Both the position numbers and the translations under genes were made by a program. The notes under the pieces are model-generated. The model made no database searches. It saw nothing but the letters and a program-made list of their open reading frames with translations, and had not been told where the DNA came from. 52,560 bases of DNA from Flavobacteriaceae bacterium UBA7433. Its GTDB lineage: Bacteria > Bacteroidota > Bacteroidia > Flavobacteriales > Flavobacteriaceae. The stretch lies in the NCBI GenBank assembly GCA_002477565.1, contig DLQL01000104.1, forward strand, positions 1 through 52,560, written 5' to 3'. Of this stretch, positions 10,983-36,024 are shown one piece after another (the first letter of the stretch is position 1; every line of letters begins with the position of its first letter).

Positions 10983-10985
10983 AGC

Positions 10986-11765: not shown

Positions 11766-11873
11766 AGATATGGGTATTGAATTTATGAATGAATAGAAAT
11801 ATCATGTATGATTTGAATGGCCAACTTTGTAGTTTGAAATGTGAGTTGGTTCTTTTTGGTTTTTACGACTAAA

Positions 11874-13241: not shown

Positions 13242-13338
13242 TTGGGGTGGGGGATGAACTCGCTATTAGAAGCAGTATGCTAACAACTTTTTTTTAAAGC
13301 CGATGTAAATATAAGGATATTTAACAAATTAAATGGAA

Positions 13339-14109: not shown

Positions 14110-14123
14110 GATTTTTTTGGGAT

Positions 14124-15059: not shown

Positions 15060-15068
15060 AAGGAGTTA

Positions 15069-18334: not shown

Positions 18335-18958
18335 TTAAACTTTTTTAGATGCGTTTTTATTTGGAATTCTATTTTCTTTATCACATTAGCTGGGTTTCCA
18401 ACAGCTATTGACATTTGGGGTATATCCTGAGTGACAACTGATCCGGCTCCTATGACAGATCCAGCTCCAATTCTAACTCCTTTCAAGATAATTGACCGAG
18501 CGCCAATAAACACATCATCTTCAATAGCAACAGGTGCTGTTTTGATTTTTGAATCTTCTTTTCTTTCCCAATAATTGATAGCGTGTGCATTATTGTCTGT
18601 AATGAGAACCCCACTTCCAATCAAAACATTGTTCCCGATTTCTATCTTTTGATAACAAGATAGTGTTGCCCCTGATATTCCAACACGATTTCCAATCTTG
18701 AGATATGAATTACTTTTTAAGGCGTATAACTTGACCCGTTGAAACACACCAATGGATTTTTTTTTGATGGCTACAGGCGACAAAATTTTTGCCAATTTTA
18801 ATTTCTGCATCCCTGTGTTTTCTGATAAGTGGTAGCTTGTGAAAAACCCAAGACCTATCCCAATTCCCCTTTCCTAATTTCACTTTGCAAAAGACAAAAT
18901 TTATTAACAGTTTGTATGCATGGTATGGCGGCAGCTTTATAAATTTAGAGAGATGCAT
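18331..18958 (-). pseudogene. Hexapeptide-repeat acetyltransferase split by a frameshift in an A9 tract
   Basis: ORF 18958-18710 (..EIKIGKNFVACSHQKK) and ORF 18810-18331 (KKSIGVFQ..IGSGVLITDNNAH..VGNPA) join at the T9 run 18757-18765. The span is 628 nt; removing one base gives one 208-aa ORF. Confidence 0.8.
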
Positions 18959-18973
18959 ATGAGTTAGTAATTT

Positions 18974-19669
18974 TTATTTTGAGAATCCTTCTAGTTTTTC
19001 AAAAACCCGCTCTTTATTACTTCCTATTAATTTAGCTGGATAGCCTCCTATTATTGAAAAGGAAGGAAGGTTTAAATAACTTTTGTTGCATAGACTGTTT
19101 GATGCAACTGTGAAATTTTTAGGGGTTTTGGTGTTTTTCATCACGGTGATTCTATTTCCCAACCAATTGTACGAGCCAATTTCAATTTCTCCAATCATTT
19201 CTTCAATAGAGTTGTCAATTCGATTTCTTAGGTAATGAAAATTCGTGTCAAAAACTTGACACTCCCAACTGATGTCTATTTGATTTTTAAAAACAATTTT
19301 ATTGACACAAAATATTTTTGATTGTGCTCCTACAGTAACATTGTTTCCAAAACTCAAGACACCCTTTTTATCCACTCTTATCAAGCAACCATGGCCAATG
19401 TCCAAATTGCCATCAATGACAACAGTTCCTTTCAAATCAATCACAGTAGCTGAGTGTGGAAACATATCGGAGCCTCTGGCACCTATTTTAACAATCCCTC
19501 TTGAAATCTTCTTGTTCTTTAGAATTATTTTACCAGAGATGTTTTCAAATCGTATTTTGTGATTAAAAATAAATGGCAATTTCAAAGCCTGCTTGAATTT
19601 CAGCATTTTAAAATTGAAATACAGTGTTGCAAGAATGTTGAAGGAACGAAATCTTTTTAGGGGTCTCAT
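18974..19669 (-). CDS. Hexapeptide-repeat acyltransferase
   Basis: ISWECQVFDTNFH, IEIGSYNWLG, IIGGYPAK. Confidence 0.85.
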   Translation of the reverse strand: MRPLKRFRSFNILATLYFNFKMLKFKQALKLPFIFNHKIRFENISGKIILKNKKISRGIVKIGARGSDMFPHSATVIDLKGTVVIDGNLDIGHGCLIRVDKKGVLSFGNNVTVGAQSKIFCVNKIVFKNQIDISWECQVFDTNFHYLRNRIDNSIEEMIGEIEIGSYNWLGNRITVMKNTKTPKNFTVASNSLCNKSYLNLPSFSIIGGYPAKLIGSNKERVFEKLEGFSK

Positions 19670-19672
19670 TTT

Positions 19673-20668
19673 TTACCAGTATGTTGCCTCATCAATTTTC
19701 GAGGCTGTTTTTGGAGTGTCATCTTGCAATGGCCTGGTCCAATAGTTATTATAAAGACTGCAGTAAGGTTCCGCCATTAAAAATTCATGTTCTTTAAATT
19801 CATCAACTCCATAATTTGGGTTGTCCCATCTTTTTCCTTTGATGCCAAACAACAATTGCAAACCGCCTCCGATATGGAAAGCTTTTTTACCGATTCTTTT
19901 TACATGTGCTGCCAACGGTAACCCATATGCACCACAGCCAATAATGGCAATGTCAAAATCAATTTCATCAATTTGTTTTTTCATGTGTTCAAGAGCTTCA
20001 TGCCAATCGTTGAGGTCATTTGGTCTTATTCCTGCAGCAGATTGAACAGATTTAAGGGTGATTAGCTCAAACTCTGGAAGCACGTCAGAATTGTTAAAAA
20101 GTTTTTCCCGGATTGAGTATTGTTTTTTTATGGTGTCTTCAAAAGGGTGAATGACCAATACTTTTTTCCCTTTCAGCACCCGTGTCCACGGATTGTTGAC
20201 AAAGAAGGGATACAGTGCCTCGAGGTGTATATTCTGAACATTATCAGACAGAGGCATGAATTTTTCGTAGTATTGAAACGAGCCCAAAACATCGATTTCA
20301 GGGATATCTTTTAAATACCTTTTGGAAAAGCGTACTGCCATCTCTTTTGTCGGAGGGAAGACACCTGAATATTCATCCAGGTATTTGAAGTTTTTTTCAT
20401 CCCACCAAGGCAGGTGTGTTTTGTCAGAAATAAATTTTTTAAGTTTCTTGACGATTGGGTCTTTTTGGGTAATGCATAAATAGTTGTTGATTGTGATGAG
20501 TTCTGTGGTTCCAAATCTCGAAATCATACATGGACTCTTGGAACTTAACAATTTATAAATGAATTCATTAGCTAAAGTCCTATCTATTACACAATTGGGA
20601 TTTGTAAATCTTTTTTTGAAAAGAAAGAAATTTAATTTCCTGAAACATTTCATTAATTGGCTAAGCAT
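19673..20668 (-). CDS. Conserved polysaccharide-locus protein, possibly GT-D-fold-like
   Basis: MISRFGTTE, KKVLVIHPF, DFDIAIIGCGAYGLPLA..GGGLQLLFGIKGKRW; fold assignment from memory. Confidence 0.55.
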   Translation of the reverse strand: MLSQLMKCFRKLNFFLFKKRFTNPNCVIDRTLANEFIYKLLSSKSPCMISRFGTTELITINNYLCITQKDPIVKKLKKFISDKTHLPWWDEKNFKYLDEYSGVFPPTKEMAVRFSKRYLKDIPEIDVLGSFQYYEKFMPLSDNVQNIHLEALYPFFVNNPWTRVLKGKKVLVIHPFEDTIKKQYSIREKLFNNSDVLPEFELITLKSVQSAAGIRPNDLNDWHEALEHMKKQIDEIDFDIAIIGCGAYGLPLAAHVKRIGKKAFHIGGGLQLLFGIKGKRWDNPNYGVDEFKEHEFLMAEPYCSLYNNYWTRPLQDDTPKTASKIDEATYW

Positions 20669-20679
20669 GGTCTAAAGAT

Positions 20680-20832
20680 AAAAAAGTTTTAAAATTATTC
20701 ACAAAGAAGCTGAAAGATATTTTATTTGTTACTATTAATTGAGGTTCAAATGCAATGATTTTTTTCTAAAAAATTGTTGGCAATTTAAGTATTTAAGGGG
20801 ATTCTTTTTGAAAGGTTTTTAAAATACATCAT
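20680..20832 (-). pseudogene. Possible remnant of an FkbM-type methyltransferase
   Basis: An ATG overlaps the GT4 stop (MMYFKNLSKRIP..); a shifted frame then reads KKIIAFEPQLIVTNKIS..VNNF. Confidence 0.3.
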
Positions 20833-21953
20833 TGATTGGGTCTTGTTTTTTCTAAAAACTGTTGATATCGAATTCCGTAGGCCTCCCAAGAAAATTTGCT
20901 TTCTAAAGATTTGGAATAGGATCTTTTTCCTTTTTGTGTTTTTGAGATGTCCAATGCAATCTTGACACACTCAGTTAATTCTTTACAATTATAGTCTTCC
21001 ATAACGGTGATAAATTTGTCGTCTTCAAGCAGGTCTTTTATCTCTTTTGAACCTGTTTCACCTGAGCATACGACAGGCAAACCACAAGCAATCGCCTGCG
21101 TCAAAACCATCCCAAATCCATCTTCTCTCGAGGGGAGAATTAATATCTTGGATTTTTTGTAATAATCGATGATTTTTTTTTCATTTACAGCACTAACATG
21201 AACGATGTTTTTTAAGTTGGAAAGAGGAACATCTCCAACGGTCCCCAAATGAATCAAACTCAATTCAGGATTTTTTTTGCACAATTCAATCATCAAATCA
21301 GCTCCTTTTCGATACGACCATTGACCGACAAAAATCATGTCAAAATGAGATTTAGCATCCAGTTCTGTCGGTTGAAAGTCAGTTAAATCTACACCGTACG
21401 GATTTACAAATAGTTTTTTTTTGGGAATCCCATGTCTAACAAAACTTTCGGCTACATAATTTGAGGGAATGCTTATGTAATCAGCATGTTCGTAACCAGC
21501 TAAATCCCGCTGAATATTTTTTTCAGAAATTGTTGATTTTTTAAGAGGATTCTCTTTTAATAGATCAATGAAATTTAAGACATGACTCGTCCCTCTCTCT
21601 AAAAACACCGTGGCATTGAATTTGTTTTTTGCAACCAATAGCGACTTTAGGTGCATTGGACTGTGTCCGATAAAGACATCACAAGGTTCCATAATTCTAG
21701 ATATGTACCAGTCAAAAAATCGATGGTACATATAAACAGCCCATTGCGCTCTTTTTGTTATTCTTAACAGCAGCAAAAACGGCAAAGCAATGGTGAAATA
21801 ATTTTTGTTGTGTTCTTTTTTTAACCCGAACACCTTTGCCCGTTTATTGGGAAGGTAGGAATAGAAATTTACGCTATGTCCATGTTTTATGAGTTCTATT
21901 GAAAGATTCAGCAGGTGACTTCTTCCCCCAAAAGAGGCAATGTTAATTTTCAT
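20829..21953 (-). CDS. GT4 glycosyltransferase
   Basis: NPYGVD, FVGQWSYRKG, PSREDGFGMVLTQAIACGLPV. Confidence 0.9.
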   Translation of the reverse strand: MKINIASFGGRSHLLNLSIELIKHGHSVNFYSYLPNKRAKVFGLKKEHNKNYFTIALPFLLLLRITKRAQWAVYMYHRFFDWYISRIMEPCDVFIGHSPMHLKSLLVAKNKFNATVFLERGTSHVLNFIDLLKENPLKKSTISEKNIQRDLAGYEHADYISIPSNYVAESFVRHGIPKKKLFVNPYGVDLTDFQPTELDAKSHFDMIFVGQWSYRKGADLMIELCKKNPELSLIHLGTVGDVPLSNLKNIVHVSAVNEKKIIDYYKKSKILILPSREDGFGMVLTQAIACGLPVVCSGETGSKEIKDLLEDDKFITVMEDYNCKELTECVKIALDISKTQKGKRSYSKSLESKFSWEAYGIRYQQFLEKTRPNQ

Positions 21954-23217
21954 ATTTTTTTATTTTTTTTGTCAAAGAAAACCCTTTCAAATGACTTCTT
22001 AAATACGCTTTTATTTCCCTTTCGTTCATAGCTCTGAGCTCTCTGTTAAGACACATCCCGATCATAAAAAAACTAGATAAGGTGTTAAGGTTATACATTA
22101 GTCGGTCTGCAATAAATGACATCACAAAACCAATCGAAACAAACAGGCCTAATGTAATCATAAACCAGTTTTTCGATTGATAGATTGCCAAATACGATGC
22201 TCTTGCAATTAGTACAAGGTATATCAATCCTCCACACACACCTCCCCATTGGTAATAATTCAGGATACGAGTTTCAGTACCTCTTCGTCCTTCTTCATAA
22301 ACTTTTCTAAAAGTTTGATTGTTTTCGTTTTTAGTAAGGAACGTGTCGGTTTTACCAGACCCCCCCAATCCAATTAAAACCTTGTTTTGTTTTAAAAGTG
22401 CTGAGTGTACATCATTGTAGATCCCGGTTCTCGAATCGACCAACAAGTCTTGCTTTTGCTTGTTTTCTTCGTTGGAGAGTTCAATGGATTCAAAACTTGC
22501 CCCGTGTTCAAAGACATTAAGGATGCCTGATGCCCCCAAAACAGCGAATAACAAAGGGAAAAACAGAAGTGTTTTTCTCAAGGCCTTAAATAAAATCAAT
22601 ATCTCATTACTTCTAAAGTAATAAGGTAAGATGCAAGAAATAATCAAAAGGCCATACAGGAGTGATGCGCGAACTCTGATGTCATAAGAGAAAATAACAA
22701 TAAGAACTAGAATAACAAAAAATTTGAGTTTTTTGTTTAAATAGGGGAACATTAAAAGGATTAAAAAAGAACATGATAAGGTCTTGACAAAACCATAAGG
22801 ACCCGTATCGTCTTTACCAAGAATTAAGATGAAAATAAAAGGAATAGCAATCAACAAAGCACGGATGAATGGGCCAACATATTTTTTTTGTGCGCCCAAA
22901 TAAATAGTTAAGGGAAAAAAAATAAAATTTGCAATCATATTTGATAAAAGAACTGTCCAATCTTGTAAGGACTTTGCATCGTAAATACCTCTTGCAAAGA
23001 TGAAAATCCAGTAAAGAAGAAATATCAGAACTGTTTTTTTTTCATCCATCAAAACAAATCTTTCTGTAAAAATCAGTACTAATACAAGAAGCAATGATGG
23101 ATACAAGGTTAAAAGTGTAGGAATAACTACTACACCAGGATTGAAACTGATATACAAAGTAGGAATCAAAGAAACCAAAACAATGAACTTTATAAAAGAG
23201 ATCTTATTAATCATCAA
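21943..23217 (-). CDS. wzy: Putative Wzy polymerase
   Basis: About 11 TM segments with a periplasmic loop (DSRTGIY..RRGTE); directly after the flippase. Confidence 0.65.
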   Translation of the reverse strand: MMINKISFIKFIVLVSLIPTLYISFNPGVVVIPTLLTLYPSLLLVLVLIFTERFVLMDEKKTVLIFLLYWIFIFARGIYDAKSLQDWTVLLSNMIANFIFFPLTIYLGAQKKYVGPFIRALLIAIPFIFILILGKDDTGPYGFVKTLSCSFLILLMFPYLNKKLKFFVILVLIVIFSYDIRVRASLLYGLLIISCILPYYFRSNEILILFKALRKTLLFFPLLFAVLGASGILNVFEHGASFESIELSNEENKQKQDLLVDSRTGIYNDVHSALLKQNKVLIGLGGSGKTDTFLTKNENNQTFRKVYEEGRRGTETRILNYYQWGGVCGGLIYLVLIARASYLAIYQSKNWFMITLGLFVSIGFVMSFIADRLMYNLNTLSSFFMIGMCLNRELRAMNEREIKAYLRSHLKGFSLTKKIKKYEN

Positions 23218-24694
23218 TTTTATTTTTAGAATCGCTGTTCGATTTGAATCTTCTGGGTGATTGAAATTTAATCATTTCATCCCCAAATCTTTGGTTTCGT
23301 TCAGCATGTTTGGCTTCTAATTTTTTTCCGAATACCTGTACTGTCATGTTTTTGAAATCTTTGAACCCCTCAGTTATTAGGTCTATCTTTTTTATTTTCA
23401 GTAGTTTGCAAGCGTAGGGAAGCATGAGAAATGAAAGTATTAGATCTAAGGATAAACTTCCAATGGCAACGCCATTCAAACCTATGTATTGTCCCAAAAA
23501 ATAAGAAGCGACAACAGATACAATGGAAGCTAAAATACCAGACAATGCAAAAAAATAGGGTTTGTCAAGAGCGGAATACACCATTGTCGAAGCCCACCAA
23601 AGCGAATTAAATAAAATGCTTACAATGAAGATATTCCACATTATAACAGGCACTTCGATTGCAGAATTTGTCCAGATTTCATAAAACCAGAGGCCAAATA
23701 CTGAAAGAGAAAAGACGCCAATCATTGCTACAAAAAAAACAGTGATTATCGAGACTCTAAATAACTTATGATATTTTTTTGTGTTTCCCTGTGCAATTTC
23801 ATATTGAAATTCTGGGAGGATTGTTTGAGTGACCATATTGATCACTTGATTTACAGTTCTACTCAGTTTTCTTACGGTATTGAAAAGCGTGACTGCTTCC
23901 GGGCCCAAAATAATTCGAACGACAAATGTAGTCCCCTGAAAATAAATGGACTGCCAAACTGGAGACATGAGGTATGCAATTCCCTTTTGAGCAATGCTTT
24001 TGGCGTATTTCTTTTTTATGCTTCCTTTGTACTCCGTTTCAATTTTTAAAACGTTCAATGCTTTGAAAGCATAAAAAGCAGTAAACAAGATAGTAATTGC
24101 CAATTCAGTTATTGCATAAGGAATGATTCCGTACCCCAAGTTTAAAATAAACAATCCACCAATTAATACAGAGATGAACTTTATGTTTACCAAATGAATA
24201 CTCAAAGAAGCTTTTCGAGCAGCAACATAGCGACCTGAAAAAAGGGGATTGTAAAATCCAATCAAACGGGCCAGAATAAGAAGTGATACTGCCCAAATCG
24301 CTTCTTCTTTCTGGATTAAAGATTTTTCAAATACTTCAAATTCATTCAAGACGAATAGCGCAATTGCACTGATGATAATTCCACAAACCAATGCAATTGT
24401 CACTAATGCAAAGCCGGTTTTAAAAATGTCTTCTGCTTTTTTTTTTGCTTTTGACCCGTAGTTCAAAACAAAACGATTGGATACTGCTGTGCCAAAACCA
24501 AAGTTAGATAAGCTTAATACCGTGGGAATCATTGTCAATGTCAACCATTCTCCATAGTAGGCTACTCCCCAATTGTAAATAAAAAAAGGAACCAACAGCA
24601 ATGAGTCCAACATCAACACAGCTTTTCTGCTACCGGTTGCGATGCTGTTTTTTAATAAGTTTTTTTTTAGTGTCCCCATTTTAATTTTTGACAA
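23207..24694 (-). CDS. wzx: Wzx flippase (MOP family)
   Basis: 12-14 TMs, LLVPFFIYNWGVAYYGEW and LGPEAVTLFN motifs. Confidence 0.85.
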   Translation of the reverse strand: MSKIKMGTLKKNLLKNSIATGSRKAVLMLDSLLLVPFFIYNWGVAYYGEWLTLTMIPTVLSLSNFGFGTAVSNRFVLNYGSKAKKKAEDIFKTGFALVTIALVCGIIISAIALFVLNEFEVFEKSLIQKEEAIWAVSLLILARLIGFYNPLFSGRYVAARKASLSIHLVNIKFISVLIGGLFILNLGYGIIPYAITELAITILFTAFYAFKALNVLKIETEYKGSIKKKYAKSIAQKGIAYLMSPVWQSIYFQGTTFVVRIILGPEAVTLFNTVRKLSRTVNQVINMVTQTILPEFQYEIAQGNTKKYHKLFRVSIITVFFVAMIGVFSLSVFGLWFYEIWTNSAIEVPVIMWNIFIVSILFNSLWWASTMVYSALDKPYFFALSGILASIVSVVASYFLGQYIGLNGVAIGSLSLDLILSFLMLPYACKLLKIKKIDLITEGFKDFKNMTVQVFGKKLEAKHAERNQRFGDEMIKFQSPRRFKSNSDSKNKIDD

Positions 24695-24759
24695 TCTAAA
24701 AGATGCAATTAAACATCTTTAAAATTTTTCATTGAGTCGCGAGTTTTTTTTCGTTAATT

Positions 24760-25467
24760 TTATGATATGAACAATTCATAAATTTTATTGGCTTCTTCCA
24801 TCAATTTTTTTTCCTTCTCACTTTTCAATTCATTCTTCACTATTTTTTTTTCATTTTCTCTAAATTCAGTTGGAAACATATGATTCCTAGGTTTTTTTGT
24901 GTCAATATTTTTTACTGTTGTAGCAACATCTTTAATAACAGTAAAATTTGTGGAATATTTTTCGTTAAAATCAACAATTATTTTGCTAAAATTAGTGGTT
25001 ATGTCTTCAAACCTTCCGATAACAAAAAGATCTTTTTTTTCTAAAAGAGAAGAATAAAATATAATGTACCATTTAAGATACCAATAAATAGGAGTTTCTA
25101 TGTGTTTTTCATTGCGAATAATGGCATCTTCTTTAGTCAAGACCTTTAATGAAAGCACAGCATCTTCGGGTTTTCTTACAAGCACAAGAGTTGGCACACC
25201 TAACCGGATTGCTTCTAAAACATTTGTATGTGAATGCATGTGCGTTGCAATACCGTTGTTTATACCGCTGCATATTTTGAATGCAGCAACTGTAAAGCTA
25301 TTCGCAGACCTAGGAAACCCCTCTATGCACATAGTTGAGTTTTTTGTAACCAATCTGAATGCTGTCTTTTTATTTGTTATCTTAAAATAGAGCTTTGCAA
25401 TGTTATTGTATTGTTTGGGGTAATTTTTTTGTAAAAGTATTCTTATGTATAATTTAATTTTTTTCAT
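24760..25467 (-). CDS. PAPS-dependent sulfotransferase-like protein
   Basis: 5'-PSB-like IEGFPRSANSF and 3'-PB-like VLVRKPEDAVLS; next to cysC/cysQ. Confidence 0.72.
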   Translation of the reverse strand: MKKIKLYIRILLQKNYPKQYNNIAKLYFKITNKKTAFRLVTKNSTMCIEGFPRSANSFTVAAFKICSGINNGIATHMHSHTNVLEAIRLGVPTLVLVRKPEDAVLSLKVLTKEDAIIRNEKHIETPIYWYLKWYIIFYSSLLEKKDLFVIGRFEDITTNFSKIIVDFNEKYSTNFTVIKDVATTVKNIDTKKPRNHMFPTEFRENEKKIVKNELKSEKEKKLMEEANKIYELFIS

Positions 25468-25521
25468 TAACTATTTTAAATTTTGGAATGATATTACTTA
25501 AAATATAAATCTATTGAATGT

Positions 25522-26538
25522 TTAGTTTGCTTTAAGATATTGATACTTGATCATTTCTTTCCTTGTGTAACCCAATTTATTTAAGAGTTCTAAGTTGCTT
25601 TTCTCATATATTTTGAAAACTTTTAATTTTTCGTCGGCAGTAAGTCCCCTTGATTTATTTTTAAATTTAAGATCTAAAATAGCATTCGGGACGCTTTTAA
25701 TTAGTTTGATTTTTATTTCTTTTGCTTTCTCGGGTCTGATTAAAAAACGTAGGTATTTACTGTAAAAATATTTTAGTTTATTAACCAAGCTACTTGGGCT
25801 TGCTTCTATTTGATTTAAAGTGTTTTTAATTGTGACATTTTTTTTGTTTTTCTGGAATGCATATTTGGTAACAAAACCTTTATCAATACAAAACAGTGAT
25901 GACAGTGTATTCAAAACACTACTTTGCTTGTGTTTTAAATCTTCAAAGAGACAAACCTTAACGTTGTCTTCTCCAAATTCCTTTACATATGAATTGTATA
26001 TGAGATTGTAATTAAAAATTATTTTAGAGTCAGTTAAAACTTCAAAAAAATTAGTTTCTAACCATTTACTCATTTTTTTAAATCTAGGTTGGATAGAAGT
26101 AATGTGATTGAATAGTTGAGCATAAAATGAGGGGATTATAGTCACCTGAGCTCTCGTAAACATTAGAATTTGGATTTCATCAAAATATGGTGAAAATATC
26201 TTTCGAATTCTTCTTGCATTTTTTTTGGCATTTGAATTGTGGATTGCCATCGAATAATCTTCGCTAAAAAATGAAATGTTTTCATTTGAGATAACCGAGA
26301 TAGGATTATTTATAAGTTTAATCTTTTCAAGTTCCTCTTCAAAATCAAAATCATTTGACATACCCATGACATAACTCAGTGTTTTTCTGCAATAAAAGTC
26401 ACCTAAATACGATGACTTTTTATTCAGATGATTCAAGTATTCGATTTTATTTTCTTCATGCATTTTAGCATAAAAATTCAATTGCATTGAAGTCGTAGCT
26501 GTTTTTGGGTATCCGATATGAATGATAAGTTTTTTCAT
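25522..26538 (-). CDS. PAPS-dependent sulfotransferase-like protein
   Basis: Start reset to MKKLIIHIGYPKTATTSMQ (5'-PSB-like); FTRAQ....SFY 3'-PB-like. Confidence 0.75.
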   Translation of the reverse strand: MKKLIIHIGYPKTATTSMQLNFYAKMHEENKIEYLNHLNKKSSYLGDFYCRKTLSYVMGMSNDFDFEEELEKIKLINNPISVISNENISFFSEDYSMAIHNSNAKKNARRIRKIFSPYFDEIQILMFTRAQVTIIPSFYAQLFNHITSIQPRFKKMSKWLETNFFEVLTDSKIIFNYNLIYNSYVKEFGEDNVKVCLFEDLKHKQSSVLNTLSSLFCIDKGFVTKYAFQKNKKNVTIKNTLNQIEASPSSLVNKLKYFYSKYLRFLIRPEKAKEIKIKLIKSVPNAILDLKFKNKSRGLTADEKLKVFKIYEKSNLELLNKLGYTRKEMIKYQYLKAN

Positions 26539-26546
26539 GCGTTTTT

Positions 26547-27338
26547 TTAGGGCTTTACCAAAAACCAATTGTTCAACAATTCTTCTCTGTTGTAAAGCAT
26601 GGGTTCTTTTGTCTTCCAATCAATGACTTTAAATCCTGCGTGTTCGCAAATGGCTTGTCCTGCTGCCGTGTCCCATTCCATGGTAGGAGCAAAACGAGGG
26701 TAACAATCGGCTTGCCCTTCTGCAACCATGCACAACTTTAAAGAACTTCCTTTCGAAATCAATTTGACGTCTCCGTGTTTCATGCGCATTTCCTGTACAT
26801 AAGCCTCTGTATCTTGAGACATATGGGAACGACTGGCCACGATGGTAAAGGTTTTGTTTGTGCGTTTTAAAGGCAATTTGTTTCCTTTTGAAATTATAGT
26901 TGTAACATCATAATTTTCAAGATCGACATTCAATTTGTACGAACCTTTCTCTCTAGTGGAAAAATACAAGTCCTTAGTAGCAGGTACAAATATTACTCCA
27001 ATTGAGGGTTTTTGATTTTCGATTAAGGCAATGTTTACCGTAAACTCTCCGTTTCTTTTGATGAATTCTTTGGTGCCGTCAATCGGATCTACAATCCACA
27101 ACTGCTTCCATCCTTTGCGTTCTTTAAAAGGAATCGCTTTGCCTTCTTCCGAAAGAATTGGAATGTTCGTTTTTTCTAAATAAGCTGCGATTTTTTGATG
27201 TGATGCCATATCGGCTTTGGTCAAGGGAGAGTTGTCTCCTTTGACTTGGATATCAAAATCGCCAGATTGGTAAATTTCGAGAATGGCTTTTCCCGCCTCC
27301 AATGCAGCTGTAATTGCCGAATATAAGTGTTTCTCCAT
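26547..27338 (-). CDS. cysQ: 3'(2'),5'-bisphosphate nucleotidase
   Basis: SPLTKAD, LSEE, IVDPIDGTKEF, GSSLKLC, WDTAAGQA. Confidence 0.96.
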   Translation of the reverse strand: MEKHLYSAITAALEAGKAILEIYQSGDFDIQVKGDNSPLTKADMASHQKIAAYLEKTNIPILSEEGKAIPFKERKGWKQLWIVDPIDGTKEFIKRNGEFTVNIALIENQKPSIGVIFVPATKDLYFSTREKGSYKLNVDLENYDVTTIISKGNKLPLKRTNKTFTIVASRSHMSQDTEAYVQEMRMKHGDVKLISKGSSLKLCMVAEGQADCYPRFAPTMEWDTAAGQAICEHAGFKVIDWKTKEPMLYNREELLNNWFLVKP

Positions 27339-27412
27339 CTCAGGAATTTCGTTTAATTGTGGTCTTGAAATTAAGTTAAATCAGTGTTGGCACGTCAGTT
27401 ATTGTATCAACA

Positions 27413-27548
27413 TTTTTTTGCCAGATATCTCAATTAAATCGACTTTTGCTTCTAGAAAAGAGCTTGTCAGGATTTTTAAATTGAGTTGAAATTTCTCGAA
27501 AGACAAATTTGATTTTCGATGAAAGCTCTCCCAGGGGTTTAATTTATA
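27413..27548 (-). pseudogene. cysD: Decayed 5' fragment of sulfate adenylyltransferase subunit 2
   Basis: Across two frameshifts reads YKLN / LGELSSKIKFVFREISTQFKNPDKLFSRSK / SI*LRYLAKK, against the CysD pattern YLxELESEAIxxFREVxxQFENPVxLFSGGKDSIxLxHLAKK; lies right after cysC. Confidence 0.75.
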
Positions 27549-27561
27549 AACAACCAATCTT

Positions 27562-28149
27562 TTAAAGTGCTTTTTGAGTTAGAAAACGCATTATTTTTTT
27601 GAGAGACATTTCTGTCGTTTCGTTTTCTGTGGCAATTTCAAGATCAGGTTGGGTCGGAGCTTCGTAAGGTGCTGAAATACCCGTCATGTTTTGAATTTCT
27701 CCTGCCCGCGCTTTTTTGTACAATCCTTTCACATCACGACGTTCGCACTCTTCCAAACTCGTATTGACATAAATTTCAATAAAATTTGATGCTCCAACCG
27801 TTTTTTTGATGTTTTCACGATCTTTCAAATAAGGTGAGATAAAAGCTCCGAGAGTGATGATTCCCGCATCGATCATCAAATGGGCGATTTCTGAAATTCT
27901 TCGAATGTTTTCGGTCCGGTCTTCAGCAGAGAAAGTCAAATTTTTGTTAATACCTCTTCGGATGTTGTCTCCGTCTAAGGTATAGGTGGAATGTCCCAAC
28001 TTGTGTAATTCTAGCTCTACCAAATTGGCCAGGGTCGATTTCCCAGAACCGGATAGTCCTGTAAACCAAATTAAAAAGGAGGGATGCTTGTGAAGCCTTT
28101 GCCGTTCTTTTTTCGATAATTTGTAGTGTTGTTGGAAAGTATTCTCCAT
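27562..28149 (-). CDS. cysC: Adenylyl-sulfate (APS) kinase
   Basis: IWFTGLSGSGKST, LDGDNIR, RDVKGLY, TGISAPYEAP; start reset to MENTFQ. Confidence 0.96.
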   Translation of the reverse strand: MENTFQQHYKLSKKERQRLHKHPSFLIWFTGLSGSGKSTLANLVELELHKLGHSTYTLDGDNIRRGINKNLTFSAEDRTENIRRISEIAHLMIDAGIITLGAFISPYLKDRENIKKTVGASNFIEIYVNTSLEECERRDVKGLYKKARAGEIQNMTGISAPYEAPTQPDLEIATENETTEMSLKKIMRFLTQKAL

Positions 28150-28178
28150 TTCAAAGTAATTAGAATTGTTTGTTCTCT

Positions 28179-28589
28179 TTAAATATTCCTTTTTCTCTGG
28201 TTCAAACCATAATTGATGCGGTACCACAATTTTTCGTGCAAAAAATACAAAATCATTTTTGTAAATACCTCAAATCCACCAATTTTTAGACCTGTTAAAG
28301 AGTTTCCTGTAATCACCCATCCCAATAGAAAAGTGTCTACTGTCCCAACTGCTCGCCAGGAAAAAGTTTTCAAGATGTGCCGCTTGTTGCTGTCTGTCAT
28401 TTTGGATTGGAACCAAGCCCGCTCGTGAGCGAAGTAGAGGAGCATCTTCGTGAACAACTCCGCAAAACCTATCTGAAATCCTGTCAAAAGGCTTCCTGTT
28501 ATCAACCAAGATAAAAAGAGCGTGTCAAGGGTTCCAATGCAGCGCCATGTTAGCGTCTTTGCAAGGTGTCTTTTGCTGATTTCAAGCAT
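28179..28589 (-). CDS. Tandem DUF2061 small membrane protein
   Basis: Two copies of KRH..KT.(T/S)WR..GT.DT......ITG..LTG..IG..E.FTKM.LY..HE..W. Confidence 0.85.
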   Translation of the reverse strand: MLEISKRHLAKTLTWRCIGTLDTLFLSWLITGSLLTGFQIGFAELFTKMLLYFAHERAWFQSKMTDSNKRHILKTFSWRAVGTVDTFLLGWVITGNSLTGLKIGGFEVFTKMILYFLHEKLWYRINYGLNQRKRNI

Positions 28590-28690
28590 TTTTTAATGTT
28601 GGTGATTTGTAATTGCTGATTTATTTTAAATTTTATGCCATCTGATAAGTGCCTTTTTTCATGAAACTTACTTTCATTGCTTGATAAAAC

Positions 28691-30103
28691 TTACCCTTTT
28701 CCAATTCCCTTGTATTGGAATCCAATTGTTTTAAGCTTAACAGCGTCTAGGATGTTGCGTCCGTCAAAGAGAAAGGCAGGTTTGTACATTTTTTCGTAGA
28801 TGCTGGCCCAGTCGTAAGTTTTGAATTCGTCCCATTCCGTCAAAATCGCAATGGCATGGCTCTCCGCTACAGCTTCCATAGCTACGGAGTGTACAAAAAC
28901 TTGTGCCAATTTTTGTGTGATTCGCGCTTCGGGAATGTTATTCAATTCCCATAAATAACTCAGATCTCCCTTTATTTTTGCTTCCGATACTTTGGGGTCG
29001 TAGACGTGGATATTGGCACCGTCTTCGAGAAGTTGGTCGGCTACATAGATGGCTGCTGATTCTCGGGTGTCGTTGGTGTCTTTTTTAAAAGACCAGCCAA
29101 ACAAAGCAATCTTTTTGCCGTTGACCGTGTTGAATAAGGAGGTGATCATGTTTTTGGCAAAACGCTTTTTTTGATAATCGTTCAGTAGGATTACTTGTTC
29201 CCAATAATCTGCCACTTCTGGTAAATTGAAATAACGACAGAGGTAAACCAAGTTTAAAATGTCTTTTTGAAAGCAAGACCCTCCAAAACCAACGGAAGCT
29301 TTTAAGAATTTGGGGCCAATGCGACTGTCCGTTCCAATTGCGTGTGCTACTTCGTCCACATCGGCTTCGGTCGCTTCGCACAAGGCCGATAAGGCATTGA
29401 TGGAAGAGATGCGCTGTGCCAAAAAGGCGTTGGCGGTGAGTTTGGATAATTCCGATGACCAAACATTGGTGGTCAATATCTGATCGTCTTGCAACCAGTG
29501 TTTGTAAATATCGATCAAGGCTTGGGTGGCTTTTTTTCCAGAAGAAGTTTGGTTGCCACCAATCAAGACACGGTCTGCTTTGAACAAATCGTCGATGGCG
29601 GTGCCTTCTGCTAAAAATTCGGGATTGGACAAGACTTCAAAATGCACGCCATTTCCGGTACTGTCCAAGATTGTTTGCAAGGTTTCGGCAGTACGTACGG
29701 GCAAGGTCGATTTTTCAACAATGATTTTGTCGTTTTTAGCCACGCGGGCGATTTGTCGCGCACAGAGCTCTACAAATTTCAGATCGGCGGCCATTCCTTT
29801 GCCCTCACCATAGGTTTTGGTCGGGGTGTTGACTGCGATAAAAATCATGTCCGCCGCATCAATTGCAGCATCTACATCTGTAGAGAAAAACAGGTTTTTT
29901 CCGCGCGCTTCAGCAACCACTTCCGCAAGTCCCGGTTCGTAAACAGGCAAGTTGTCCAAGTCTTCGTTGTTCCAAGCGGCAATGCGCGCTTCGTTCAAGT
30001 CGACGACGGTAACCTTTATTTCAGGACACTTTAAAGCAATGACAGACATGGTAGGACCACCTACGTAACCGGCACCAATACAGCAGATGTTTTTTATTTT
30101 CAT
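28691..30103 (-). CDS. ugd: UDP-glucose 6-dehydrogenase
   Basis: [35 protein letters not shown]. Confidence 0.96.
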
Positions 30104-30223
30104 GATTTTAGAATGTTTTATTTTTTGATTTGTGAATGAGAAAGTGAAGCAGGGATTTGTTGTTAATTGATTCTTTATTTAATTTGGTACGTAATCAATT
30201 TTATAAAATCCATGATCCTCTAA

Positions 30224-31180
30224 TTACAGTTTTACTTCTTTGAAATTTTCTTGGTTTTTTAGAAACCAGCCATAGGTATTTTCAATCCCTGCTTTCAGGG
30301 AGTATTTTGCTTTCCAGCCCAAGGCGTTCATCTTGGAGCTGTCCATCAACTTGCGCGGAGTTCCATCTGGTTTGTCAGTATCCCAAACGATTTCTCCAGC
30401 GTGGCCTGTTTGGGCTTGGATGGTTTCTGCCAATTCTCTGATGGTTACATCAGTTCCCGTTCCAACATTGTACAGGTGTTCAGGAAGCACGTTTTCCAAA
30501 GCGAAAATCACGGATTGTGCCAAATCGTCTACGTGTAAAAATTCACGCATCGGGGTTCCTGACCCCCATAATTTTACAGGGCTGTTGTCGTTATTGGCTT
30601 CGTGGAATTTGCGCAGCATGGCAGGTAAGACATGTGAGGTTTCTAAATCAAAATTGTCAAAAGGCCCGTATAGGTTTGTCGGCATCAGACTCACAAAGTC
30701 TTTGTCGTATTGTTTGCGAATGGCTTCACAGAGTTTGACCCCCGATATCTTGGCAAGCGCGTACCATTCGTTTGTCGGTTCCAAGCTGTCCGTTAAGAGG
30801 TATTCCTCTTTGAGGGGTTGGGGTGCAAATTTTGGATAGATGCAGGAGCTCCCCAAAAAGATAAATTTTTGAACCTCTTCTTCGTGGGCTGCAGCAATTA
30901 GATTGTTTTGAATCTGCATGTTTTCCATTAAAAAGGGGTAGGGATAATTGTTGTTGGCCAAGATGCCTCCCACTTTTGCTGCAGCATCGATGACCACCTC
31001 TGGTTGTTCGCTTTTAAAAAAAGCTGTCACAGCTGCTTGGTTTTTGAGGTCCAATTCTTTGGAGGTCTTGCCGATCAGACGGGAATATCCTTTCGCCTCA
31101 AGGGCTCTCCAGCAAGCAGATCCCACCATACCTCGGTGGCCTGCAATGTATATTTTTGTGGTTTTTGTAATTTTTTTCAT
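30224..31180 (-). CDS. fcl: GDP-L-fucose synthase
   Basis: GHRGMVGS, AKVGGI, LGSSCIYP, YALAK, SHVLPA, KPDGTPRK; start reset to MKKITK. Confidence 0.96.
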   Translation of the reverse strand: MKKITKTTKIYIAGHRGMVGSACWRALEAKGYSRLIGKTSKELDLKNQAAVTAFFKSEQPEVVIDAAAKVGGILANNNYPYPFLMENMQIQNNLIAAAHEEEVQKFIFLGSSCIYPKFAPQPLKEEYLLTDSLEPTNEWYALAKISGVKLCEAIRKQYDKDFVSLMPTNLYGPFDNFDLETSHVLPAMLRKFHEANNDNSPVKLWGSGTPMREFLHVDDLAQSVIFALENVLPEHLYNVGTGTDVTIRELAETIQAQTGHAGEIVWDTDKPDGTPRKLMDSSKMNALGWKAKYSLKAGIENTYGWFLKNQENFKEVKL

Positions 31181-31287
31181 TTTTTTAGCCTGATTGTTGA
31201 TCCAGTGATGTTTGGTTGAGGATTTGCTATTCGGAATTTGATTTACTGACAATGTTTGTAGAATCTACGATTCATTAAGTCCAATTT

Positions 31288-32403
31288 TTACTCAAAATAA
31301 TTCAAGGTTTGGTGTCCTCCTTCATTCAAATACTTGTCTCTTTTAAAGAGATTCAAATCAGAGGACATCATGTCGTCTACCAATTCTTCCAATTGAATTT
31401 TTGGTACCCAGCCTAGCTTTTCTTTTGCTTTGGTCGGGTCTCCAATCAAAAGATCTACTTCTGTTGGACGGAAATATTTGGGGTCAATAGACAAAATCTC
31501 TTTTCCTATTTCCAATTGGTATTCCGAATTTGAACAAGCTGCAATTACTGCGGTTTCATCCAATCCTTCTCCTTTGAACTCGAGGCTTATCCCAATGTGG
31601 GCAAAGGCCATTTTTACAAAATCACGGATGGTTGTGGTGCGTCCAGTGGCGATGACCCAATCCTCAGCAGTGTCTGCTTGTAATATCATCCACATCATGC
31701 GAATGTAATCTTTGGCATGTCCCCAATCTCGCTTGGAATTCAAATTCCCTAAATAAAACTTGTCCTGAAGTCCCAAAGCGATGCGAGACACCGCACGGGT
31801 AATTTTACGGGTGACAAAAGTCTCCCCTCTCAAAGGCGACTCATGGTTGAACAAAATTCCGTTGCACGCAAATATGTCATAAGCTTCACGGTAGTTTACG
31901 GTGATCCAATACGCATACATTTTTGCAACGGCATAGGGAGATCGCGGATAAAAAGGCGTGGTTTCTGTCTGCGGTACTTCTTGCACTTTCCCGTATAATT
32001 CTGAAGTAGAGGCCTGGTAGATGCGTGTTTTTTGTTCAAGGCCCAACAAACGAATGGCCTCCAAAAGACGCAATGTCCCAATGCCATCGGCGTCGGCCAC
32101 GTATTCAGGCATGTCAAATGACACCCTTACATGACTCATCGCCGCGAGGTTGTAGATTTCATCAGGTTGGATTTGTTGCAACAAACGCGTCAGGTTCGTG
32201 CTGTCCGTCATGTCACCATGGTGTAGTATGAATTTTTGGTTGTCCACATGTGGGTCTTGGTACAAGTGATCGATGCGATCGGTATTAAACAAGGAGGTAC
32301 GGCGTTTCAAACCGTGAACGGTATAGCCTTTTTTTAATAAAAACTCTGACAAATAGGCGCCATCTTGGCCGGTTACTCCTGTAATCAATGCTACTTTGTT
32401 CAT
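31288..32403 (-). CDS. gmd: GDP-mannose 4,6-dehydratase
   Basis: [41 protein letters not shown]. Confidence 0.97.
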
Positions 32404-32445
32404 CTTATTTTAATTTTAAACTGTATTTTTTTTTATTTCGATCCC

Positions 32446-33459
32446 TTACAGAAGTTCCGGGTTTGTTTTTTTGATTTTGTTGTGGATTTTTTTTACTTCC
32501 TGACTCTCACCGATGGGCAACAGCAAAATTGTGTCCGATGTTTCCACCAAAAAGAAATTGTCCATACCAGCGGTAGTGATCAGTTTTTTTGAAAAGGCAA
32601 GGGCGTTTTCAGCACCTTCAATTTTTTTGATGCCGTTCACCAAAGATTTTTCTTGGGCATAGTCTATCAAGGCATCAAAAGAACCGAGGTCTGTCCATTC
32701 GAAATCTGAGGGAACTGTTTTGACCAGTTTTGATTTTTCGAGTACTGCGTAGTCAATGCTGTCATCGGGAATAGCAGCCATGGCCTCGTAAGTGATCTGA
32801 CCGGCTACTTTTGATTGGTGCGCGTGTTCGCATGCCGCCAATATTTCGGGGTGGTATTTTTTTAATTCTTTTAAATAGGTTTTTGCTTGAAAGCAGAACA
32901 TCCCAGAATTCCAATAAAAATTTCCAGAAGCGAGGTATTCTTTGGCAGTTTTAAGATCTGGCTTTTCCCGAAATTTTAAAACATCTTCTCCAGCAGCTTC
33001 AATATAACCAAATCCAGTTTCCGGGTGTTTGGGTTGAATGCCGAAGGTCACCAAATAGCCTTTTTCTGCGAGGAAGATGGCTCGATCCAACGCCGTTTGG
33101 TAGCGCTCATCATCTGCGATCATTTGATCGGATGGCGTGACAAATAAAATACTGTCTTCTTGCAAATCCATACAAGCAAGGGCGATGGCCGGTGCTGTAT
33201 TGCGCCCAACGGGCTCACTGATTTGATACGGGATGTTGAGGTCAATTGACTTTGCTTGCTCTTGAGCCATGTCTAATTGGGTTTCATTGGTGATCAACAT
33301 AAAATCTGAAACCTTGTTGCTGTTGCGCAACATCGTGTGTTGGAACAATGATTTTTTTTGAAATATTTTTAAAAATTGTTTCGGGTTTTTGTGCCTGGAC
33401 AAAGGCCAAAGTCGGGTCCCGGATCCTCCACTGAGGATGACGTTGATACAAGTTGCCAT
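32446..33459 (-). CDS. manC: Mannose-1-phosphate guanylyltransferase
   Basis: ILSGGSGTRLWPLSR, EPVGRNTAPA, FREKP, SIDYAVLEKS, WTDLGS. Confidence 0.94.
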   Translation of the reverse strand: MATCINVILSGGSGTRLWPLSRHKNPKQFLKIFQKKSLFQHTMLRNSNKVSDFMLITNETQLDMAQEQAKSIDLNIPYQISEPVGRNTAPAIALACMDLQEDSILFVTPSDQMIADDERYQTALDRAIFLAEKGYLVTFGIQPKHPETGFGYIEAAGEDVLKFREKPDLKTAKEYLASGNFYWNSGMFCFQAKTYLKELKKYHPEILAACEHAHQSKVAGQITYEAMAAIPDDSIDYAVLEKSKLVKTVPSDFEWTDLGSFDALIDYAQEKSLVNGIKKIEGAENALAFSKKLITTAGMDNFFLVETSDTILLLPIGESQEVKKIHNKIKKTNPELL

Positions 33460-33508
33460 TTGTTTGTTTTTAAATTTAGTATTTTCCCTAAGTAACGGGA
33501 TGCACCAC

Positions 33509-33799
33509 TTAGTTTTCGTGGTTCATTATTTTTTTGAGTTCTTCCAGGGTTTTGTTCCCAAAACCTCGAATCCCTTTTAGGGTGTTTAAGTCTTCTGAGG
33601 CAGCTCTTCGAACGTCGGAAAGTGTCACCAACGGATACCCTAAGATTTCATTGTTGTTTACGAGATCGATGATGTTTCGCAAACGTTTTGAAAAAGGGTG
33701 GTCTTTGATGAGTTTTTTGTCAGCGCTTTGCTTTGTAAACTCACTTTCAAAATCTTCAATGATTTTTTTTGCCAATAAATAAGAATTTTTGTCTGCCAT
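33509..33799 (-). CDS. Stand-alone RNA polymerase alpha-CTD-like (helix-hairpin-helix) protein
   Basis: KDHPFSKRLRNII..TLSDV..LKGIRGFGNKTLEELKKIM aligns by eye to alpha-CTD DLSVRALNCL..TLGDL..LMKFRNFGKKSLTELEEL. Confidence 0.7.
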   Translation of the reverse strand: MADKNSYLLAKKIIEDFESEFTKQSADKKLIKDHPFSKRLRNIIDLVNNNEILGYPLVTLSDVRRAASEDLNTLKGIRGFGNKTLEELKKIMNHEN

Positions 33800-33857
33800 T
33801 ACAATGGATTTTAAAAATTAGATATCGGGGGGTGTTTTCTTTTGTTAATTAGGGTTT

Positions 33858-34364
33858 TCAAATGACTTTGATTTCTGTCTGGTAATCCAAAGTTACTTTT
33901 AGACCGAGGTCTGTCAATAGAATTTTAATTTTCTTTTTCCCCACCTGCTTTGCGGTTCCTTTTTTGCCTTTGAAAGGGCCAGATTCAATTGCGACGAGAT
34001 CTCCGGAAGTTATTTTTTCAACTTTTGAGGAAACGACGTCTTTATCAAGCCATTTTTTGATCAGTTCAATTTCTTCTTCTCGAACGATTGCAGCTTGCCC
34101 AAGCCATCTCAAATAGCCCAATACCCCTGGTGCTTCAAAAACACGGTTGCGTTCCTTTTCTTCTGTCTGAACAAAAACGTAGGTAGAAAATAAAGGGACT
34201 TGTATTTTTTTTTTGCGATCCGACCATTGGTGTATTTGTGTTGTTGTTGGACAATACACACGGATTCCTGATTTTTCAAGCCGTTCTGCAGTTTTTTTTT
34301 CATACCGTGGCTTTACACGAATGACAAACCAGTTTTTGTGAGGGGGCGTTTTTTCGGTTTGCAT
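33858..34364 (-). CDS. upxY: UpxY-family (NusG paralogue) transcription antiterminator
   Basis: NGN domain NWFVIRVKPRYEKK..HQWSDRKKKIQVPLFSTYVFV; KOW GDLVAIESGPFKG; first gene of the operon; start reset to MQTEK. Confidence 0.93.
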   Translation of the reverse strand: MQTEKTPPHKNWFVIRVKPRYEKKTAERLEKSGIRVYCPTTTQIHQWSDRKKKIQVPLFSTYVFVQTEEKERNRVFEAPGVLGYLRWLGQAAIVREEEIELIKKWLDKDVVSSKVEKITSGDLVAIESGPFKGKKGTAKQVGKKKIKILLTDLGLKVTLDYQTEIKVI

Positions 34365-34381
34365 TTTTGTTTGATTTTGGA

Positions 34382-34425
34382 ACGGCTTCGCCGTGTTGAG
34401 CCCCATTAAAAGCGGTGGGGGTCAA
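34382..34425 (-). promoter_or_regulatory. ops-like UpxY loading/pause element with upstream RNA hairpin
   Basis: Minus strand: hairpin TTGA-C-CCCCA..TGGGG-C-TCAA followed by ACGGC-GAA-GCCGT (contains GCGAAGC) in the upxY leader. Confidence 0.7.
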
Positions 34426-34436
34426 TTGGGGTATTG

Positions 34437-34490: not shown

Positions 34491-34745
34491 TTCCATTCCA
34501 AAAATACATTAAGTATTGCTCTCTAAAGTAGGGTTTGTACATTCAGCTCAAAATTTTAGAGTAAACAGACGCTATTTTAAATGAAATGATAATTTTAAAT
34601 TCAATTTTCATTAAGTATTTTATGTATTTGACATCTATTTTTTGATATTATAATATATAGTAATCTTAAAATTTAATTCAAAAAAAGCAATTTTACGTCT
34701 TTTAATATGTAGTTTTACACAATTTCATGACTTGCATCTAAATCT

Positions 34746-35903
34746 ATGGACACATTTCAATTCAGCTATGTTTTTGCATCGGTATCAATCCTTGTCTTGC
34801 TTTTCTTTTTCCGTGTCAACAGAAAGAAAAATCCAATAGCAGATTCGTATTTTATTTTACTTCTTTGCGTCTTGCTTCTTCGTTTTTTGTATCTTATAAT
34901 TTATCCTCCCTCTGTCGATGGGCTGGTGTTGAATGATGTTCTGCTCTTACAGTCTCAAATCTTTGTTGTTGTGTTGTTTTATTTGCATTTACTCAACCAA
35001 ACAGAGGTTCAAAGATTGTCGCGTTTGAAGTTGGAATTTCACCTCATTTATTCCTGCCTGCACTTGCCTGTATTTTATCTTTTGTACAAGGTTTTTTTTC
35101 CGAAAACACCTATACACATTGCTGTAGCCATTATTGTTTTTACGTATGTTCTTTTGTATTTTCTCCTGTTGATTCGTGTTTTTTTAAAGTATTCAAAGGC
35201 TGCAAATGGGAGTTACGATTCTTATACGGATAGTGAGAACGCTATTGTTCAAAAGTGGGTTTTTTTTCTTTCTGTAACTTTTGTGATTTTTCTTTTTTCA
35301 AAACTTTTCGTCTTTTTTTACAACCGTATCAGTCACCAACATATTTCTGCACCCTATTACTATTTTATTTCCTCCTCTTTTTGGCTCCTTGTTTTGCTTC
35401 GAATTTTGACAGATCCACTTTTTTTGATGGGCGCTAAAAATAGATCAATTAGGTCAAACCGACTAAATAAGAACAACTCTTCACTGGGCCCTTGTTGGTC
35501 ACATACGAGTTCTGAAATTACAAACCAACAAGATCTTTTGTTGTCCCAAAAAATTGAATTTCAAGTTCAGTTCTACATAAGAGCAACCGAAGACTTTTTT
35601 GAAAATTCTTTTGACTTTTCACAGCAAAAATTTGGAATCACTGACCTGTCGTTCAAACTTCACGTTCCACAAAGTCATTTGAAATTTATTTTCAAATACC
35701 ACTGTGAGTTTGGTTTTTCCTATTATTTGGTTTCTTTGAGAATCCAAAAAGCCACCGATTTGATGTTGAGTGATTTTATCAAGTTCAATACCTTGGAGAA
35801 AGTTTCTTCAATGGTCGGCTATTCAAACTACAACACCTTTTTTTTAAATTTCAAATCAGTGGTCGGGATGACTCCCAATCAATTTGTCAAAAAGATGGTT
35901 TGA
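34746..35903 (+). CDS. Membrane-anchored AraC-family regulator
   Basis: About 7 TM segments, then a C-terminal AraC HTH (LRIQKATDLM..TLEKVSSMVGYSNYNTFFLNFKSVVGMTPNQF). Confidence 0.88.
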   Translation: MDTFQFSYVFASVSILVLLFFFRVNRKKNPIADSYFILLLCVLLLRFLYLIIYPPSVDGLVLNDVLLLQSQIFVVVLFYLHLLNQTEVQRLSRLKLEFHLIYSCLHLPVFYLLYKVFFPKTPIHIAVAIIVFTYVLLYFLLLIRVFLKYSKAANGSYDSYTDSENAIVQKWVFFLSVTFVIFLFSKLFVFFYNRISHQHISAPYYYFISSSFWLLVLLRILTDPLFLMGAKNRSIRSNRLNKNNSSLGPCWSHTSSEITNQQDLLLSQKIEFQVQFYIRATEDFFENSFDFSQQKFGITDLSFKLHVPQSHLKFIFKYHCEFGFSYYLVSLRIQKATDLMLSDFIKFNTLEKVSSMVGYSNYNTFFLNFKSVVGMTPNQFVKKMV

Positions 35904-35989
35904 CGCTCGTTTTGTTTAAAGATTCAGTTATTTATTCATGTCGTGTTGATGTAGGGTTTCATTTTTCATTCTTTACTGTTAATTGTGCG

Positions 35990-35997: not shown

Positions 35998-36024
35998 ACA
36001 GATACTCAAACCCCAAACAAAAAA

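Follow-up and report, generated by a model that had tools for sequence, protein, structure and literature searches.

A predicted alpha-CTD-like protein encoded behind upxY in the capsule operon of one narrow marine Flavobacteriaceae lineage

The capsule operon and its control region

The window analysed here, a stretch of 52,560 nucleotides from Flavobacteriaceae bacterium UBA7433 (contig DLQL01000104.1), carries a Wzy-type capsule/exopolysaccharide cluster on its minus strand (8553..33459), in which a Pfam scan recognises manC, gmd, epimerases, a UDP-sugar dehydrogenase, an APS kinase, glycosyltransferases, and Wzy-like, Wza and Wzc proteins. The host assembly amounts to 1.75 Mb and is 87% complete, and the metagenome runs that contain the stretch are marine or seawater. 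At the head of the cluster, the gene order on the minus strand is upxY first, a 96-aa ORF (33509..33799; hereafter P0001) second, and manC third; with upxY and P0001 included, the cluster spans ~8553 to 34364. P0001 starts 58 nt past the upxY stop, manC follows 49 nt after the end of P0001, and an AraC-family regulator (34746..35903, plus strand; HTH_18 at 37.2 bits against a cut-off of 33.6) is encoded divergently, its N-terminal part being hydrophobic and, by eye, membrane-spanning. The description of P0001 in the initial annotation, as the second gene of the capsule operon and one without the N-terminal domain of the RNA polymerase alpha subunit (alpha-NTD), is confirmed. Further down the cluster, a DUF2061 gene, the APS kinase and an inositol-monophosphatase-family gene (Pfam) lie together at 26547-28589 (minus strand), and this combination suggests that the capsule polysaccharide may be sulfated; three genes neighbouring them, at 23207-26619, matched neither Pfam nor NCBIfam.

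The antiterminator gene upxY (33858..34364, minus strand; 168 aa) was correctly named from the outset, as NF033644 matches its product at 132 bits against a cut-off of 100. Its start is likely the second ATG (34364) rather than the one at 34406, because in relatives the stretch between the two ATGs is shifted by one base (the ORF of one metagenomic copy, L007, is 168 aa); the upstream ATG, in frame here and out of frame in the relatives, overlaps the ops element. The ops leader that had been proposed is present at the sequence level: an ops-like element (34382..34394, minus strand) with a 5-bp stem and a 3-nt loop contains the core GCGAAGC at 34385-34391, and a predicted 9-bp pause hairpin (34396..34425, minus strand) stands just upstream of that core, although its fold is not significant alone (19/200 shuffles fold as well). 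The opsE of B. fragilis has the identical GCGAAGC core, and the opsX layout described there likewise places a hairpin upstream (PMC11685472). Within the clade that carries P0001, the motif extends to TG(T/G)G(A/G)(C/G)T-N7-GCG(A/G)AGC upstream of upxY (34385-34405 of the window, minus strand), and this extended form is also seen before upxY in 6 of 32 other loci of the family (L018, L020, L021, L022, L030 and L044, the last partly displayed).

Between the divergent araC and upxY genes lies an AT-rich spacer (34500..34745), and the early claim about its composition was accurate: it is 79% A+T, a level reached by 1 of 7080 genome windows. This fits two back-to-back promoters, and a special ligand is not needed to explain it. 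A candidate box for the upxY operon, TAnnTTTG, which we take to be a -7 promoter motif, occupies 34499..34506 (minus strand) and is kept in 4/4 aligned copies; across the host genome this motif is 4-fold enriched upstream of genes (2.0 per kb, versus 0.5 per kb inside genes). A second and weaker candidate, TTG-N19-TAnnTTTG, is found in the 3' end of upxY (33888..33917, minus strand), ~90 nt before P0001; this pattern has 98 sites genome-wide, and the N19 spacing is only slightly enriched upstream of genes. A scan for E. coli-type promoters stayed at chance level (8 versus 7.6). No terminator-like sites were found in 33300-36100 and, given this and the 58-nt gap, we infer that P0001 is co-transcribed with upxY. 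Contigs from RNA runs cover the region to different extents (X1 and X2, 30/30 bins including the spacer; X9, 13/30; X10, 12/30), and those of X1 and X2 extend across the spacer too, so they may hold DNA and cannot show transcription.

Full-length copies of P0001, 90-97% identical, are present in a second genome (G002) and in three metagenomic loci; the ORFs of loci L005 and L007 are identical, and a further locus with a 97%-identical copy (L039) possibly duplicates a counted assembly and was not counted separately. Among these close-kin copies the variable columns fall 9/1/13 at codon positions 1/2/3, and pN/pS against L006, L007 and L008 is 0.26, 0.15 and 0.32, respectively (small counts, close kin), compared with 0.39-0.50 for upxY and 0.08-0.09 for manC. 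Pooled over the three metagenomic copies, 12 of 25 changes are synonymous, versus 20% expected (p 0.002). By this codon pattern P0001 is a genuine gene on which purifying selection acts; its GC3 of 0.41 is ordinary for the locus, every clade locus seen carries it, and no joint in the strain contigs skips P0001 alone. One 143-aa database relative (P0005) is a frameshifted read-through of P0001 into the manC region and is probably an assembly error.

Resemblance to the alpha-CTD in sequence, fold and contact residues

The initial annotation had read P0001 as a stand-alone version of the alpha-subunit C-terminal domain (alpha-CTD) from paired short motifs. The quoted pairs are indeed present: the S-x-R (helix 1), T-L-x-D and R-x-F-G-x-K-x-L-x-E-L patterns match host RpoA, and the alignment of P0001 with the host RpoA CTD scores 52, a value reached by 9 of 5000 shuffles (mean 28.7, sd 5.5). 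The two differ by an 8-residue insertion past helix 1 and a 3-residue insertion ahead of the second hairpin. P0001, a 96-aa ORF, has no alpha-NTD; a full rpoA stands elsewhere in the host genome, and no longer form of P0001 appeared among 7993 scored candidates, a weak test, or among representatives of any length. Profile methods return a fainter signal. The Pfam check that had been suggested does give a PF03118 (RNA_pol_A_CTD) match, at 16.0 bits (15.1 bits in the genome search), but one that covers profile positions 43-66 only and stays below the gathering cut-off of 23.8; for the distant homologue P0007 there is no Pfam or NCBIfam match. When the family alignment of P0001 (A2) is compared by hhalign, the probability is 65 (E 6e-5) with the host RpoA CTD as target and 44 with an RpoA alignment of six rows. 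The best and only PDB sequence match of P0001 is a Thermus alpha-CTD (1doq, E 0.64), and a PDB search with the A2 profile yielded integrin noise only. A purpose-built RpoA-CTD profile proved insensitive, with E 0.24 for P0001 itself, and ESM Atlas matches are leads only (all <0.9; PF03118 on 15% of one cluster). The alpha-CTD signal in the sequence of P0001 is, accordingly, weak.

Predicted structures point more firmly in the same direction. AF2 models of P0001 and P0007 were compared with 48,161 chains by VIA-align and were also searched with Foldseek. The model of P0001 has a mean pLDDT of 67.8 (69-80 per block across residues 31-90) and places a helical, alpha-CTD-like domain with the two insertions (8 and 3 residues) at residues 28-96 (33512..33718, minus strand); that of P0007 reaches 83.7, with its domain above 90. 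Alpha-CTDs take VIA-align ranks 1-5 for both models, with Z 7.6-6.0 and rmsd 1.9-2.1 A for P0001, where the Rad51C N-domain comes next (Z 5.6), and with Z 7.6-6.5 for P0007, where AF1548 (6.5) and Rad51-N (6.2) stand close by; superpositions of both models on alpha-CTDs have an rmsd of 1.8-2.1 A over 53-65 residues. Alpha-CTDs also make up 5 of the 6 top Foldseek rows for P0001 against the PDB. These scores call for some caution: VIA-align itself warns that Z <8 may mean merely a common helical arrangement, AF1548 (6.5) and Rad51 N-domains (5.6-6.2) trail the best alpha-CTD match by ~1-2 Z, no Foldseek match of either model reached E <0.001, and the two models are not fully independent because their alignments have rows in common. 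Even so, the comparison favours alpha-CTDs over an isolated helix-hairpin-helix, as had been claimed, and P0001 very probably adopts an alpha-CTD-like fold.

Ahead of this domain, residues 4-23 (33731..33790, minus strand) are predicted, at a pLDDT of about 55, to form an amphipathic helix with a hydrophobic moment of 0.39. The helix is common to P0001 and P0007, with K4, Y7, L9, A10, K11 and I13 conserved; that it serves for dimerisation is a guess.

Mapping P0001 onto E. coli RpoA places the equivalents of R265, N268, G296 and K298 at R39, N42, G81 and K83, that of S299 at T84 and that of N294 at G79, precisely as the motif comparison had proposed. P0001 also keeps D280 and E302, has R293/F295 as in host RpoA, and differs from E. 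coli RpoA by V264K, C269I, E261P, K271D, N294G and K297N. P0007 keeps R265, G296, K298 and S299 and has Lys for N268; neither family varies at the R265, G296 and K298 equivalents, and both have Gly at N294. Position 261 is Pro or Asn and position 271 Asp or Glu across P0001 and P0007, where host RpoA has Asp and Lys, respectively; we take 261 to be the acidic sigma-contact position, and 261 and 271 presumably serve sigma or activator contact. The minor-groove contacts of the alpha-CTD with UP elements are reported as R265, N294 and K298 (PMC5101437), of which P0001 keeps two (R265 and K298) with Gly at N294, and its domain is only slightly basic (11 K+R, 9 D+E). For Rob, an AraC-family activator, the described contacts are V264, R265, P293, N294, L295 and K298 (PMC9178005), and P0001 matches host RpoA at 4 of these 6 positions (R, R, F, K). 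Residues alone cannot separate DNA binding from activator decoying, because Rob uses the DNA-binding face of the alpha-CTD.

Distribution of the gene and of what stands behind upxY

The P0001 family is rare. It turned up in 2 of 61 relatives and in 2 of 13 genomes of the genus, accounted for 2 true matches and 2 chance ones among 401 family-level genomes, and was missing from 400 other genomes of the class. The chance matches are weak hits of A2 that fall, in G212 and G132, within long open frames at loci unrelated to this one; a 13-bit RpoA-profile match in L034, antisense to a transporter gene, was dismissed likewise. A search of 1.84 billion representatives with P0001 returned three proteins, namely two copies, one near-identical and one truncated, and the distant P0007 (35% identity, E 1.3e-4), which aligns end to end with P0001 and has both insertions in common with it. 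The locus of P0007 was not found in viral contigs, phage records or genome contigs, nor in 401 family and 401 class genomes.

Adjacency to upxY was surveyed at 60 upxY loci outside the P0001 clade (28 from the family, 4 from the genus and 28 from the class), which reach ~1.5 kb beyond upxY, seven being shorter at contig ends. An alpha-CTD-like ORF stands behind upxY in 0 of these 60, by ORF listing, profile and Pfam scan. Because the purpose-built profile was insensitive, the basis of this negative is the ORF listings together with Pfam scans, which did give a score to P0001 and to its copy in G002. In the first listing 41 of 54 short ORFs were Pfam-scanned besides the two clade copies, at the class loci 15 of 15; the 11 unscanned short ORFs either overlap other frames within loci of the P0001 clade itself or are identifiable as biosynthetic genes. 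Mostly biosynthetic genes occupy the position behind upxY, and by eye none of the 60 loci has an UpxZ-like gene there. Of 199 genomes from other genera, 11 have a homologue of the AraC regulator (24-33% identity), and in none of the 11 does upxY or P0001 lie within 1.5 kb of it. Several of these homologues (L071-L073 and L081) face unrelated divergent genes, whose products look secreted by eye and are not polysaccharide genes.

The idea of a conserved regulatory circuit occupying an "UpxZ slot" found no support in these counts, and the neighbourhood survey places the P0001 family beside upxY in this clade only. There, araC, upxY and P0001 are together in every locus seen, and the shared order reflects recent descent rather than a conserved circuit because the clade copies are 90-98% identical. 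Between the host genome and G002 the cluster head is 91% identical over 9.4 kb and the middle varies. In the two genomes with the closest cotH orthologues (G010 and G011), cotH has other genes upstream, and in G011 upxY and manC are located elsewhere, without P0001. The araC-upxY-P0001 block is thus, as far as the compared genomes indicate, confined to one narrow clade.

In 7 of the 60 non-clade loci, from several families (L017, L035, L036, L100, L103, L114 and L116), the gene first in line behind upxY encodes an ArsR-like winged-helix protein of 170-190 aa; in L037 such a gene lies directly upstream of upxY. Its family matches are below cut-off only. Outside Bacteroides it is the small regulator that recurs next to upxY, and it has a stronger claim than P0001 to belong to a conserved module.

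Likenesses by fold lead elsewhere. The best viral match of the P0001 model is a 98-aa phage protein named as alpha-CTD-containing (95 columns, 27% identity; Foldseek probability 0.99, E 0.082), and several further phage entries of that name match the P0001 and P0007 models in the fold search. No sequence relatives of either protein were found in viral contigs or phage records, and PHROG gave no match for P0001 below E 0.16, so a mobile or phage origin would follow from fold only. Among 121 genomes of the order, a second short PF03118-like ORF occurs in 5 genomes of genus g31. These ORFs (85-87 aa; L063-L067) stand at an equivalent place in a VOC/SRPBCC-like cluster (names by eye) that is unrelated to polysaccharide genes, and match NCBIfam PRK07758 weakly. 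Between P0001 and the g31 set the hhalign probability is 3.4, and P0001 has no match to PRK07758 at E up to 10.

Possible roles and known counterparts

The reading that we favour, tentatively and at somewhat less than an even chance, is that P0001 binds AT-rich DNA as a competitor, occluding rather than recruiting polymerase. Under this model-based proposal, P0001, whose gene is fixed behind upxY throughout one small lineage of marine Flavobacteriaceae, would be a diverged, free-standing protein of alpha-CTD fold with an added N-terminal helix, and may descend from the free alpha-CTD-like genes that phages or mobile elements carry. Its kept Arg39/Lys83 surface would engage the minor groove of AT-rich DNA, and the change of N294 to Gly, which gives a plain G-x-G hairpin, would make for binding with little sequence specificity. 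Because the alpha N-terminal domain is missing, P0001 would compete with polymerase and not recruit it; it may mildly damp AT-rich promoters, its own spacer being one plausible target.

A different use of the same surface would be as a protein decoy that titrates the AraC activator or the acidic tail of NusA, feeding back on initiation or on ops-leader pausing. We consider this unlikely. P0001 does resemble host RpoA at most of the positions contacted by Rob (PMC9178005), the alpha-CTD and the NusG-NTD compete for NusA-AR2 in E. coli (PMC4937328), NusA strengthens opsX pauses (PMC11685472), and araC, upxY and P0001 keep company throughout the clade; on the other hand, V264 and N294 are changed, the acidic repeats AR1/AR2 are placed in gamma-proteobacteria in the account available (PMC4937328), and the gene is absent from the other upxY loci and the AraC homologues, the clade order being recent descent. 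The product of the host nusA (L068:1300-1530, minus strand) does run on for ~65 residues past the NusA model; this acidic C-terminal tail looks by eye like a single acidic repeat but matches no family and no acidic-repeat model. Just as unlikely is a phage-facing passenger, parked in a surface-polysaccharide island as a decoy for phage proteins that target the alpha-CTD. T4 Alt and ModA reportedly ADP-ribosylate the alpha-CTD at R265, whose equivalent is invariant in both families, and the phage protein that is the closest whole-length fold match, the very patchy distribution and the possible promoter of the gene's own in the 3' end of upxY all suit such a passenger. Against it, there are no flanking defence or phage genes and no phage homologue by sequence, and P0001, present in all clade loci with no gene-skipping joint, is steadier than typical defence cargo.

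It is improbable that P0001 is simply a generic two-hairpin helical domain of the Rad51-N, AF1548 or SAM-like kind, binding nucleic acid non-specifically and alike by fold rather than by descent. A Pfam score below cut-off and confined to the hairpin, the lack of any Pfam or NCBIfam match for P0007, the closeness of AF1548 and Rad51-N in Z, and the naming of P0007 cluster members after DNA polymerase X in one source would be expected of such a domain; alpha-CTDs nevertheless head the structural ranking for both models, and the three sequence patterns follow those of host RpoA. Finally, a functional UpxZ analogue that binds UpxY directly is highly improbable. In Bacteroides, UpxZ inhibits non-cognate UpxY (PMC11685472), and the position of P0001 directly behind upxY invites the comparison. 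The setting for such inhibition did not emerge: UpxZ (PF06603) matches neither P0001 nor anything else in the host assembly, although a B. thetaiotaomicron control was positive, and with one UpxY above cut-off in this 87%-complete assembly, no non-cognate UpxY is known that it could inhibit. Nor does any counterpart of P0001 stand behind the other 60 upxY genes.

To return to P0001 as a competitor for AT-rich DNA, it is tempting to extend this to a feedback element of the capsule operon, made together with UpxY and either masking the AT-rich spacer or soaking up AraC or NusA, so that capsule transcription is damped. Such recruitment is quite unlikely. Were it true, it would be the first function assigned to the widespread and unstudied free alpha-CTD-like proteins, and a way of tuning a UpxY operon that does without UpxZ. 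P0001 offers a direct test because the output of the operon, the capsule, is measurable and the AT-rich spacer is an obvious candidate target; the payoff would be limited even if P0001 regulates the capsule, because it is confined to one narrow uncultured lineage. As it stands, P0001 looks like a local add-on, lineage-restricted and likely acquired, and not a standard part of UpxY control or a conserved capsule switch, since it is found beside upxY in this narrow lineage only.

Set beside the Bacteroides UpxY-UpxZ-opsX system (PMC11685472, PMC12632263), the present operon shares an upxY in first position, the GCGAAGC core and an upstream leader hairpin, and differs in having no UpxZ, one UpxY found and a second gene unrelated to UpxZ; in these accounts the "UpxZ slot" is a Bacteroides arrangement, and it is no rule in the loci surveyed here. 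From the alpha-CTD of RpoA itself (PF03118; 1z3e_B, 2max, 4mex_A, 5vi8_T), which it resembles in predicted fold and in the R265, N268, D280, G296, K298 and E302 equivalents, P0001 departs by its missing alpha-NTD, its extra N-terminal helix, the 8- and 3-residue insertions, the substitutions N294G, V264K, C269I, E261P, K271D and K297N, and a Pfam score below cut-off. The nearest counterparts are the free alpha-CTD-like proteins of phages and bacteria (UniProt A0A6J5N2B9 and similar BFVD entries), on whose function no paper was found in the open-licence PubMed Central and bioRxiv literature. Like P0001, they stand alone and share the fold and an x-G-F-G hairpin; however, they sit in VOC/SRPBCC-like clusters or in phages, whereas P0001 sits in a capsule operon. 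Taken as a whole, the P0001 family appears to be a new and very small variant of an annotated but functionally unstudied kind of protein, in a place that is suggestive and non-recurrent.
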